From a virus: a DNA stretch of 42,056 bases. Below are positions 4,951-28,193 of this stretch, in pieces (positions within the stretch are counted from its first letter, which is position 1; the number at the start of each line of letters is the position of its first letter). The position numbers and the translations under genes are program-made. Below the pieces are notes generated by a model that saw only the letters and a list, made by a program, of their open reading frames with translations, had not been told where the DNA came from and ran no database searches. Location of the stretch: UHGV virus genome UHGV-0374040. One strand, written 5' to 3'.

Positions 4951-5860
4951 TGATAATCTCTCCTTCCAATATGTTGTTTTTGCTAATTGATTTTAAGTCA
5001 GATAAAAATTTCTCCAGCCTTTCGGTTAGAAAGTCTAGTTCTCTTTTTGCAAGTCCATCCCTCCTGATCACCTCTGACAAATCCTGATAGATTAAGATGC
5101 TTGCCTCTGACAAGAACTCATTCGATTTTTCTAATACATCTGATAGATTCTTGTAGTTAGAAATAAGTTGCTGAGTTTCGTTTAGTTTGCCTTCAGCTTG
5201 GTTGATTGCCTTTGATAGTTGTTCATACTTAGACGATTTCTCATCCACTTCTTTTCGTTCAGCTAACAAATATCTATAACTTGATTCAAGTTGCGAACTT
5301 CGTTCTTCTAATTCTGAATAGGATTGTTTCAAATTTTCGTAATCATCCGGAATTTTTTCAACAACTACTTCCTTTTCGATGACTCTTGGTTGTTGAATAC
5401 TCATGTCATTGATCACTTCTGAAAGGTTATCGATTTGTTCATCTTTCTTTTTTAGCTGCTTTTCTAATTCTCGATATTCCTTTGTGGTTTTTATATCGCC
5501 AGATAGAACTAACTCGACTGCTTCCGGTTCAGCAGAGGGTTTTGATATTTCAGTTCTTAACGTTGTTGGTAGTTCTTGGAACATATCTATCTGTTCCGAT
5601 TCGTGCATTTGATGCACGAATTTAGCTTGATTGATATAGTTGTAAACTGTTCTTTTTTTTAAACCAATAGAGGTAAACCAACTTTCAAAAGTACCGTTGT
5701 TAAATTTAGCGAGCTGCTCTTGAGCTTCGATTAATTTTTCACCGAGTTGAATCGAACCATTCAAAACGATTGTTCTCATTTCCTGCTCTTTTACTTTGAG
5801 AAAGCTAGCAGTCCGATCATCCACTATTGAATAGTCGAAAGTCTCGCTAATTTCATTCAT
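4943..5860 (-). CDS. DUF3102-like N-domain plus long coiled-coil early protein
   Basis: 305 aa. The N-terminus (TASFLKVKEQEMRTIV...GTFESWF...RTVYNYINQAKF) resembles DUF3102, common in phage early regions. The remainder is E/K-rich coiled coil. Confidence 0.45.
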   Translation of the reverse strand: MNEISETFDYSIVDDRTASFLKVKEQEMRTIVLNGSIQLGEKLIEAQEQLAKFNNGTFESWFTSIGLKKRTVYNYINQAKFVHQMHESEQIDMFQELPTTLRTEISKPSAEPEAVELVLSGDIKTTKEYRELEKQLKKKDEQIDNLSEVINDMSIQQPRVIEKEVVVEKIPDDYENLKQSYSELEERSSQLESSYRYLLAERKEVDEKSSKYEQLSKAINQAEGKLNETQQLISNYKNLSDVLEKSNEFLSEASILIYQDLSEVIRRDGLAKRELDFLTERLEKFLSDLKSISKNNILEGEIINE

Positions 5861-24336: not shown

Positions 24337-25070
24337 CTATATCGTCCCCCTCCCTTCTCGGAATTCACGAAGGCGTTTAGCTACTTGTGTTAGTTCTTTT
24401 TTTCGTTCTTCGTTCAGTTTTTCTTGCTCGAATGATGAACCTTCTAGAACATTACTGATTCTTTCTTCGTAGTCGTAGAAATCAGAGAATTGTTTGTAAA
24501 TTGGCTCCCCTTTTTTATTTTTTGCGCGTACCGCATCATTTAAAAAGGCCTGCTGATGTCGTTTCATTTCCTCGTCCACTTGTGACAAATTGAAAGCAAG
24601 CATACGTAATTCATATTCTCTGATAGTCATTTTGTTAACATCTTCAAACGAATGACAACCAAGAAATCGAAAAGCGTTTAAAGCTAATTCTTCGTAGAAT
24701 TCACGACTGTTTTTCCTTAGTTTTTGTTCGCTGCTTTTCGAGTTTGAGCTTTCAGTTTTTTGATCATCGCTTTTGTTAAATCCTGCTTTCCCAACTCAGC
24801 AATCAAATCCCCCGATAGTTTTTCAATATCTTGAGTAATCAGCCAAGCTTCAATTTCTGACTTACCCACTTTTACATTGTCTGCTTGCAAAGCCATAATG
24901 ATATTTCGCAGAACAACTGGATTGCATTGTTGTAAATAAACTAGCGCTGAACTAATTCCCATACCGAAAGAAGCCCCACCAGTATGAACTTCGTACATCT
25001 GATCAAGAGCCTCAATAGCGCCGATAGTAAATTTCACATCGATAATTTTTCCATTAATATCAAAGTTCAT
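24337..25070 (-). CDS. Tail assembly chaperone GT fusion via programmed -1 frameshift
   Basis: The -1 frame is open from the slippery A6C run (plus-strand T-run at 24756-24761) through the downstream 97-aa ORF. This matches the conserved G/GT arrangement between the major tail and tape measure genes. Confidence 0.45.
24717..25070 (-). CDS. Tail assembly chaperone (gpG-like)
   Basis: 117 aa, located between the major tail protein and the tape measure. Confidence 0.65.
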   Translation of the reverse strand: MNFDINGKIIDVKFTIGAIEALDQMYEVHTGGASFGMGISSALVYLQQCNPVVLRNIIMALQADNVKVGKSEIEAWLITQDIEKLSGDLIAELGKQDLTKAMIKKLKAQTRKAANKN

Positions 25071-26377: not shown

Positions 26378-26687
26378 TTTTGACCACTTCCTGCACTATC
26401 AAACTATTTCGCCTGCTAGGGTTTCTCACAGTAATTTCTTTATAGGTCTTATCACCAATCTCGATATAATCGAATTCCGGCAAAACAAAAAGAGGCATCG
26501 TCCGAATGACTTTTGCCCCTTGCCGGATATCTCCGAATATCTTTATGCTGCGTTCCGTACCTAAATCAGTCACGTTCACTAACGTATCTGTTCTGTTTGG
26601 TTCATTTTCAATCCACTCGCCAAGATCAGGATCATAGTGAGACTCAGATGATTCCTTGACGAAAGTAATTTCATCAGTGTATCTCAT
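26361..26687 (-). CDS. Head closure / head-tail joining protein
   Basis: 108 aa, called from its position in the synteny. Confidence 0.55.
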   Translation of the reverse strand: MRYTDEITFVKESSESHYDPDLGEWIENEPNRTDTLVNVTDLGTERSIKIFGDIRQGAKVIRTMPLFVLPEFDYIEIGDKTYKEITVRNPSRRNSLIVQEVVKNESTS

Positions 26688-27016
26688 AAAAACCTCACCT
26701 TGCCTTTTCGTGGGCCAAGCAGACCTTTCTCCTGATCTTTGAACTCATCAATCTCTCGACGATACTCTGAAAAATCAGAATCAGGAAAGACCATCGAAAG
26801 TCCTTCCTGCGAATAAGATTGCATACCTTCCTGTCCGATCCGATTGAACCTTTTGAGAGTCACTTCGTACGATATATACTCAAACTCTGCAGGAATTTCG
26901 GACACGCTCAGCAACGACGCTAGACGCTCTTTTGTCCGCCGTTCGATGATCTCAAGCTTTTCATCGATTGTGCCAGAGAGTAGCTTTTTAACATCTTCTG
27001 CGATTGCTTCAGCCAT
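26684..27016 (-). CDS. Head-tail connector (gp6-like adaptor)
   Basis: 110 aa, first gene after the capsid gene. Confidence 0.6.
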   Translation of the reverse strand: MAEAIAEDVKKLLSGTIDEKLEIIERRTKERLASLLSVSEIPAEFEYISYEVTLKRFNRIGQEGMQSYSQEGLSMVFPDSDFSEYRREIDEFKDQEKGLLGPRKGKVRFL

Positions 27017-27027
27017 AAGATCCCCGC

Positions 27028-27321
27028 CTATCCAGCTGCTTGACCAGTAACAGCAATAGATGTTGTCAACGACCCTGATGTAAAGTTGATTGTTGCTGAA
27101 CCTTCGCCAGCGATCGTTCCTTCAAATGTTCCATCGCTAATCTTAGCAATAGTTACGATTGACTCATCACTAGATGCTGCTGTGGTAGCTGTAATTACTG
27201 TTGCAGAATCAGAAGCATCAGCTGGATCTGTAGTGATCGTAAACGTCTTAGTATCGCCTACCTTACCGGTCCAAGTTTTTTGGCTTGGAACAATTCCGGT
27301 AGTAGGCGTTACGCTTTTGGG
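27028..27321 (-). CDS. Ig-like (Big_2-type) C-terminal extension of the major capsid protein, reached by a -1 programmed frameshift
   Basis: Slippery heptamer C_CCA_AAA_G on the mRNA (plus strand 27315-27321), two codons before the capsid stop. The -1 frame is open for 94 codons (…TWTGKVGDTKTFTITTDPADASDSATVITATT…TIAGEGSATINFTSGSLTTSIAVTGQAAG) to a TAG at 27030-27028. The ORF has no start codon of its own. Confidence 0.5.
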   Translation of the reverse strand, partial: PKSVTPTTGIVPSQKTWTGKVGDTKTFTITTDPADASDSATVITATTAASSDESIVTIAKISDGTFEGTIAGEGSATINFTSGSLTTSIAVTGQAAG

Positions 27322-28193
27322 CTGATTTTCGCGAAAGCTTCGTCTTTAACGATCATGAAACCTACATCCATCGTACAACGCAAAGCCAATAATTCTTGTT
27401 CGAACAAATTGACTGGTGTTCCATCTTCATTCGTTAATGTTGACAGTTGTGCTTCTTCCGAAATTTTAAACGAGATATTAAACGGAATACCGTAGAACAT
27501 ATAATCGAAGTCCCCACCGTATAGATTTCCTTTTTCTAATGCTTTTAAGTCAACGACTGGTAAACCATCGATTGTGTTTGCTCCACGATCATAGATAAAT
27601 TCCGTAGTGTTTCCGACAACTTGAGACGCGCCACGTAATTCTGTGCGGTTCTTGCGGTTAGAAATAAATGCGTTTGCTTCAAATTCGTTTTCGCCTAACA
27701 AATCTTCTAACGCTAAGATATTGTCATAAGTCAACGCACCCTCAACAACATTGTTTGCTAATACAACAGACTCTTCTAAAGATTGTGGGAATGGATTGTC
27801 AGTGTTTAACAATGCCGCTGCATCAAACTTTTTGTAAAAAGCTTCCGCAATTTTAGGTTGCATAACTGTAAAAAAATCAGACATTTTGTATGTTAGATAC
27901 TCACGAGAAACTGGGATGATAACGCCTAATTTCTTAGCAACCATTGTCGCTTGCAACCATTTAGGTTTAGAAGTTTTAATCTTTTCGCCTTCACCTACCC
28001 AGTAAGCGCCAGGACCTTCTGCGAAATACTCAAATTTCTTTTCCTTGTCTTCCATCGGCTCATATTTTGCTAATTGCATTACTTTAGAGTTTTCCATCAC
28101 ATCATTGATGATTAATTTGTTGTATTTATCAGGGATAACACCCTCTTTTGTTTCTAAAACTGTTACGTTATCTGGATTCCATGTTTGTACCAT
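27309..28193 (-). CDS. Major capsid protein
   Basis: 294 aa, downstream of the scaffold gene. Confidence 0.8.
   Translation of the reverse strand: MVQTWNPDNVTVLETKEGVIPDKYNKLIINDVMENSKVMQLAKYEPMEDKEKKFEYFAEGPGAYWVGEGEKIKTSKPKWLQATMVAKKLGVIIPVSREYLTYKMSDFFTVMQPKIAEAFYKKFDAAALLNTDNPFPQSLEESVVLANNVVEGALTYDNILALEDLLGENEFEANAFISNRKNRTELRGASQVVGNTTEFIYDRGANTIDGLPVVDLKALEKGNLYGGDFDYMFYGIPFNISFKISEEAQLSTLTNEDGTPVNLFEQELLALRCTMDVGFMIVKDEAFAKISPKA

Follow-up and report, generated by a model that had tools for sequence, protein, structure and literature searches.

A long open reading frame without a start codon of its own extends beyond the stop codon of the major capsid gene of the virus genome UHGV-0374040, in the -1 frame of that gene, and raises the question of whether it is expressed and by which route. 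We addressed this question on the whole 42,056-nucleotide stretch of DNA, hereafter called the window, to which all positions refer. An earlier note on this DNA had proposed that a programmed -1 frameshift appends an Ig-like domain to the capsid protein. This proposal is supported by the homology of the open frame to the capsid extension of phage A2, by the identical junction in A2 and by the joined capsid coding sequence in the record of phage J-1. The locus is best read from its sequence as a programmed -1 ribosomal frameshift of the A2 type, located at the 3' end of the capsid gene, that would append an Ig-like domain, a reading to which we give a probability of about 0.9, and the Enterococcus-type prophage very probably makes a longer form of its capsid protein through ribosome slippage.

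Slip site and reading frames at the end of the capsid gene

According to the ORF list, the structural genes of the window lie on the minus strand, the capsid gene having a scaffold gene (DUF4355) upstream and the gp6-like connector gene downstream (Table 1). The capsid ORF matched the Pfam family Phage_capsid (PF05065) over residues 19-290 with an E-value of 5.8e-32 and, amongst the PHROGs, PHROG_10 'major head protein' (4.6e-58). This full-length PF05065 match, together with the head-module context provided by the scaffold on one side and the connector on the other, places the protein in the HK97 fold.

The gene ends with the codons AGC (27323-21), CCA (27320-18), AAA (27317-15), GCG (27314-12) and TAA (27311-09), so that one sense codon (GCG) separates the heptamer from the zero-frame stop. 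A CCCAAAA heptamer in frame near the capsid stop had been claimed before, and we found it at this place on the minus strand. Judging from the heptamer sequence, tRNA-Pro and tRNA-Lys are both able to re-pair on CCC AAA after a -1 slip. The -1 reading then continues as CCC AAA AGC GTA ACG CCT..., that is PK-SVTPTTGIVPSQKTW..., and stays open up to the TAG at 27030..27028. The same note had given this frame 94 open codons and had placed its end 12 nt before the next gene; the open frame is real, but it adds 95 new residues, and 11 nt separate its TAG from the ATG of the connector gene (27016). In view of this short distance, the tightly packed operon would have a gap of 292 nt without the extension, which exactly fills it.

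Table 1 Coordinates of the features at the 3' end of the capsid gene in the window.
Feature	Position	Strand	Description
Major capsid protein gene, zero frame	28193..27309	-	294 aa, 33.1 kDa, HK97 fold; C-terminus ...AFAKISPKA-stop
Slippery heptamer C_CCA_AAA	27321..27315	-	X_XXY_YYZ in the zero frame; identical in A2
6-nt spacer GCG UAA	27309..27314	-	Last sense codon and stop, between heptamer and stem-loop
Predicted stimulatory stem-loop	27255..27308	-	Three stacked helices: CGCCUACU/GGUAGGCG, ACCGG/CCGGU, UCCAAG/CUUGGA
-1 extension	27028..27315	-	95 codons (SVTPTTG...VTGQAAG) and TAG; predicted Big_2-type Ig-like beta-sandwich
Next gene, head-tail connector, gp6-like	26684..27016	-	Homologous ORF in L089 (E. 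avium contig) is PF05135 Phage_connect_1

The extension has no start of its own, as had been claimed: the first ATG, GTG or TTG in its frame is codon 84, leaving 83 codons without one. We found no Shine-Dalgarno (SD) sequence upstream of the extension, the neighbouring genes all having a GGAGG-like one. At the stop-codon density of the window, a 97-codon open frame would arise by chance with P ~0.003, and among the ORFs of 90 aa or more in the window, the capsid gene alone has an XXXYYYZ in frame at a distance of one codon from its stop. Because overlapping downstream genes interfere with the scan of gene ends for long shifted frames, we use it here qualitatively only. A chance origin is excluded by the occurrence of the same arrangement in 79 out of 80 related loci.

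To these observations we added a comparison of substitutions with five ungapped relatives. In the four for which counts are given, differences at the first, second and third codon positions of the -1 frame amounted to 20/12/51, 9/5/34, 16/3/40 and 3/0/12, and the other two frames of the extension region were full of stops. This third-position bias indicates that the -1 frame is translated and that purifying selection acts on it.

The same phage carries a second -1 signal, a lambda-like G_GGA_AAG in the tail chaperone gene, which was counted in support of frameshifting. This signal, at 24786-24792 (minus strand), lies inside a TAC_12-like tail-assembly chaperone ORF of 117 aa (24717..25070, minus strand), and the -1 frame (…GKAGFNKSDD…) continues into a downstream ORF of 97 aa (24337..24630, minus strand), as in a classical lambda-type G/GT frameshift.

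Downstream stem-loop and the proposed slippage

A search for a downstream hairpin, which had been suggested together with the frameshift, led to the prediction of a stem-loop that begins 6 nt 3' of the heptamer, within the range of about 5-9 nt expected of such a structure, and whose role as a stimulator is a prediction. With RNAfold, the 97 nt from the heptamer onwards gave -31.7 kcal/mol (z = -5.14), and out of 200 dinucleotide-shuffled sequences not one was as stable. Three further outer pairs would lengthen the stem-loop to 27312..27251. An Rfam scan of 26900-27450 at E <= 1 matched no family.

When 23 distinct junctions were aligned, 89.7% of cells in the basal helix (CGCCNNC / GNNGGCG) were paired, with compensatory changes from U-A to G-C in seven sequences and from C-G to U-A in one. 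These sites are synonymous, since they are the third positions of one Pro and one Val codon; conservation of the helix could partly be due to the conserved amino acids (T-P and V-G). The only helix that RNAalifold recovered from the full set of 23 junctions was the basal one, of 6 bp, indicating that the upper helices of the window are not family-wide and differ between subfamilies. The A2 and J-1 sequences fold differently downstream of the heptamer, with non-significant z-scores. As in the window, the structured region of A2 starts 6 nt past the heptamer, but the hairpin predicted for the window exceeds that of A2 in size and stability. The spacer, GCGTAA or GCGTAG, recurs in most relatives, phage A2 among them.

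From these elements the following course of events can be proposed. The majority of ribosomes would translate ...CCA AAA GCG UAA without slipping and terminate there, giving the 294-aa capsid protein. A minority would pause with tRNA-Pro and tRNA-Lys on C_CCA_AAA, translocation being impeded by the stable stem-loop 6 nt downstream and possibly also by the adjacent stop codon. Both tRNAs would then move back one base onto CCC AAA and the 95 codons would be read in the -1 frame, yielding a capsid protein of 388 aa with a C-terminal Big_2-type Ig-like domain. The predicted fusion junction peptide is ISPK|SVTPTTGIVPSQK (...ISPK-SVTPTTG...), and the computed mass of the long form, 42.3 kDa next to 33.1 kDa for the short form, agrees with the ~42 kDa that had been anticipated. 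The 33-kDa and 42-kDa forms would co-assemble, so that a sub-stoichiometric share of subunits would show the Ig-like domain on the head surface. We infer that slippage takes place in the window phage, with an efficiency that would leave the long form in the minority, and that the long form enters virions.

Could the open frame be translated in a simpler way? It might be an independent small gene with a non-canonical start codon (ATT in the window, ATC or GTG in relatives) that produces a free decoration protein of ~9 kDa. GenBank/PGAP callers do list a 'hypothetical protein' or an 'Ig-like domain-containing protein' of 80-104 aa, and in the Enterococcus phage B1578 codon 10 of this frame is a GTG, but the called starts vary among relatives, the call in E. 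avium requires an ATC and the window offers no ATG, GTG or TTG until codon 84. The lack of an SD sequence upstream, where the neighbours have strong ones, and the position of the would-be initiation region inside the -31.7 kcal/mol hairpin further argue against separate initiation. So does the A2 precedent, and so does the conservation of the slip site and of the -1 relation to the capsid frame in 79 out of the 80 loci, and we consider an independent gene very improbable.

The Ig-like extension and its relation to phage A2

To the nature of the appended domain we applied profile and structure comparisons. At E <= 1 no Pfam family matched the 95-aa peptide, and the 388-aa fusion gave Phage_capsid alone. 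Against the PHROGs, the extension matched phrog_215 'structural protein with Ig domain' (5e-12). A family profile built from seven sequences matched, in the PDB, teneurin-like Big_2 repeats (1e-15) and LigA (3e-7) and, more weakly, lambda gpV (0.012) and 2mog 'Bacterial Ig-like domain, group 2' (0.055). AlphaFold on the extension as a single sequence gave an unusable model (pLDDT 49.7), whereas AF2 with a 27-sequence alignment that included 26 database homologues predicted a beta-sandwich with a pLDDT of 91.7 and a pTM of 0.82. In the PDB, Foldseek aligned this model with the C-terminal Ig domain of lambda gpV (2L04/7T4F; TM 0.78, rmsd 1.6 A) and with a surface protein of phage SU10 (TM 0.73, 30% identity); it also matched SbsC, LigA/LigB, a Big_2-CBM56 domain and the capsid decoration protein of N4. 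Taken together, the profile matches, the AF2 model and the Foldseek matches identify the predicted fold of the extension as Big_2-type Ig-like, too divergent to be recognised by a Pfam HMM from one sequence. The Big_2 assignment of the earlier note therefore holds at the level of profile and fold, although the Pfam search that it had proposed as a check returned nothing.

The closest experimental precedent is the -1 capsid frameshift of A2, which is described as experimentally established and as giving rise to an additional head protein that is essential (Garcia, Rodriguez and Suarez 2004, J Bacteriol 186:1714, as reported in PMC5009743). We took this experimental status of A2 from the review PMC5009743, from paper titles and from GenBank annotation. 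Homology between the two extensions was demonstrated by tblastn, which placed the window's extension on A2 5574-5831 (E 3e-5, 98% coverage), and by blastp (44% identity, E 4e-16). The A2 capsid gene ends with ACC CCA AAA GCG TAA and its -1 frame reads PK-SVTPDGVTLSQKT..., so the junction of A2 gp5A/gp5B is identical to that of the window, CCCAAAAGCGTAA followed by SVTP (CCCAAAAGCGTAACGCC; C CCA AAA GCG TAA), and the heptamer takes the same position, at the penultimate sense codon of the capsid gene. The extension counts 87 aa in A2 and 95 aa in the window. The two capsids both belong to PHROG_10, yet their bodies have no BLASTP similarity: the A2 capsid is a protein of 400 aa with an N-terminal prodomain and protease, whereas that of the window has 294 aa and is accompanied by a separate DUF4355 scaffold. 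The host lineages differ as well, the window being of Enterococcus type and A2, a phage of Lactobacillus casei, belonging to Lacticaseibacillus. Phages J-1 and PL-1 are A2 relatives with 'major capsid S/L', and the GenBank record of J-1 contains a 'major capsid S' plus a joined 'major capsid L' CDS. In all, the feature of the window is not new but an Enterococcus-group case of the well-characterised A2-type capsid frameshift. The extreme C-terminal position of the domain, which had been regarded as distinctive, is conserved in A2 and in essentially the whole family.

More distant systems follow the same general principle. In its treatment of Ig-like extensions acquired through frameshifting, PMC5009743 groups A2 with T3 and with the Listeria phages A118, A500 and PSA, and describes recoding at the 3' end of a gene as giving some major capsid or tail subunits a C-terminal Big_2, I-set or FN3 domain. 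The T3 capsid protein 10B and the Listeria cases (A118 and A500 at -1, PSA at +1) vary in shift direction and signal and are regarded as independent events, whereas the window carries the specific A2-type cassette. Lambda gpV (2L04), the SU10 surface protein and the N4 decoration protein have the same fold, which is surface-exposed and non-catalytic in these proteins; there, the Ig domain sits on tail-tube or separate decoration proteins and is present on every subunit because it is encoded in-frame, whereas in the window it would be added to the capsid protein by frameshifting. Fraser, Yu, Maxwell and Davidson (2006, J Mol Biol 359:496) reportedly described Ig-like domains that programmed frameshifts add to phage structural proteins.

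By analogy, the Ig-like domain of the window may serve in surface or carbohydrate adhesion, a role that has been suggested for the Ig domains of phages in general, or in stabilisation of the capsid, a candidate role in view of the requirement of A2 for both forms. The predicted sub-stoichiometric display on heads could influence adsorption to cell-wall or mucosal glycans, which would be relevant to phage engineering and display.

Distribution, mobility and annotation of the junction

We searched for relatives of the extension in several collections. A tblastn search of 50,697 phage genomes returned 35 records, including the Lactobacillus phages A2, J-1, PL-1, iLp1308, CL1/CL2 and ATCC8014, the Pediococcus phage cIP1 and the Enterococcus phages phiFL4A and vB_ElaS_B1578, and in all those inspected the match lay directly after the major head gene. 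Amongst the IMG/VR loci found with the extension profile, the domain was in the -1 frame of a long upstream ORF, the head gene, in the 79 out of 80 mentioned above, and the slip site of the viral loci was nearly always CCCAAAA or AAAAAAA one codon ahead of the stop. The nearest database protein to the extension, from Enterococcus avium, is 97% identical, the capsid region showing just 83% nucleotide identity.

The window and its relatives comprise 86 loci with 29 distinct junctions, of which 21 have CCCAAAA, three AAAAAAA and five N_UCA_AAA. The members of the last group read GGG GUC AAA AUA A/G (L084, L085 and L088) or U/C UCA AAA UCC UAA (L086 and L087). After a -1 slip on N_UCA_AAA, re-pairing would be possible for the A-site tRNA-Lys alone, and in three of these loci the stop adjoins the Lys codon; from their sequence they are possible non-canonical single-tRNA slip sites.

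The runs of seven A's (GUAAAAAAAGCG) found at the same site in some relatives have a length that makes slippage of the polymerase conceivable, and the long form could then result from stuttering of RNA polymerase on an A run rather than from the ribosome. The run in the window consists of four A's only, and known slippage-prone A runs are far longer than four A's. A heptamer that follows the X_XXY_YYZ frame rule and a conserved hairpin at the optimal 6-nt spacing suit ribosomal frameshifting, and we regard transcriptional slippage, too, as very improbable.

No exact match to the 55-nt junction was found in GTDB representative genomes. Out of the 49 homologues of the window capsid in these genomes (38-81% identity), the full cassette was found solely in Enterococcus sp. 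AZ126. In a prophage of Pediococcus acidilactici DSM 20284 (L133, NZ_GL397067.1, ~2140-2210) the capsid homologue ends with TCC CCA AAA GCG TAA (CCCAAAAGCGTAA), and its -1 frame adds just PKSVNPVVGEGEADSAVLAE, 18 new residues, before a stop codon and the next gene; this is either a cassette minus its Ig domain or a minimal extension. Besides these two, the capsid homologues of the GTDB set had no cassette, and neither had Enterococcus phage EFC-1.

One viral locus (L062, IMGVR_UViG_2513237368_000005, 1631-2764) encodes an in-frame capsid-Ig fusion, ...ILDDNKAAIFTAGSTVTTGITLSQKTA..., with neither slip site nor stop, and its phrog_840-type relatives end with ...AAIFSATPKA-stop and use the frameshift. 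Such a fusion shows that full-occupancy Ig display is tolerated and, together with the Ig-less homologues (EFC-1 and most capsid homologues), that the long form is not universally required. This natural fusion also lends some colour to the idea that the locus of the window is a decayed in-frame capsid-Ig fusion, split by a 1-nt indel or a sequencing error, whose extension is unexpressed. The out-of-frame arrangement and the same heptamer are, however, kept across 29 distinct junctions and several capsid families, and the -1 frame is still under purifying selection; a decayed origin is effectively refuted by this conservation. All three alternatives were thus rejected: independent initiation for want of a start codon and an SD sequence, transcriptional slippage because of the short A run, and a decayed fusion on the grounds of conservation and selection.

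Head proteins of PHROG families 10, 840, 29 and 544 carry the cassette, as does, in a single case, a scaffolding protein (phrog_194). In this last locus (L026, IMGVR_UViG_2541047577_000001, ~2190-2495) the sequence ATC CCA AAA GCG TAG with an Ig domain in the -1 frame follows an ORF of 147 aa whose match is the head scaffolding protein phrog_194 and not a capsid protein. The upstream proteins have no BLASTP similarity to the window capsid, the extensions being 44-86% identical, and the similarity between loci begins exactly at the heptamer. A near-identical junction, CCCAAAA-GCG/CCU-UAA/UAG-CGCC..., recurs in at least four PHROG head-protein families that lack mutual BLASTP similarity. The onset of similarity at the heptamer and the sharing of the cassette by unrelated head proteins suggest movement as a module. 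On these sequence comparisons we give even odds to the view that a single mobile and self-contained recoding cassette comprises the slip site, the Ala-stop spacer, the hairpin base and the Ig domain, so that the signal would travel with the domain. If true, this reading departs from the published view, summarised in PMC5009743, that Ig domains land randomly and that frameshifting evolves later where they are out of frame. It would provide a natural example of a recoding signal that spreads horizontally along with its domain, which is only a mildly new angle.

The capsid CDS of the window would properly be annotated as joined on the minus strand, with join(28193..27315, 27315..27028). In public records the Ig extension appears as a stand-alone 'hypothetical protein' of 80-104 aa, as 'major head protein' or even as 'tail tube protein'; examples are L001 2397-2660, L002 2397-2660, L089 2501-2767 and the proteins P0001-P0026. 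Starts are chosen ad hoc, such as GTG in B1578 and ATC in E. avium WOUC01000035.1, and many records of Enterococcus prophages and phages contain an orphan 'hypothetical protein' with an implausible start. These stand-alone Ig ORFs are probably a systematic mis-annotation of a frameshifted capsid CDS. The A2-type capsid frameshift is hereby extended to phages of the Enterococcus group, and current understanding of it is unchanged.

A further ORF of 79 aa, almost certainly a shadow ORF of the T/S/A-rich coding strand, lies antisense to the Ig extension (27086-27325, plus strand); its counterpart in the E. avium contig (L089 2470-2709, minus strand) is listed as a gene.

Of note, two of the records differ by one base over the 401 nt compared and have an identical gene layout, although they are assigned to different hosts: Enterococcus phage vB_ElaS_B1578 (L001, PQ283533.1) and 'Acinetobacter phage D2SVT' (L002, PQ554527.1). 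To list Acinetobacter baumannii as host of the latter, which is a siphophage of Enterococcus type, looks like an error of attribution or a contamination. The same is suspected for the 'Veillonella sp.' MAG contig L091, which carries an EFC-1-like Enterococcus phage capsid.
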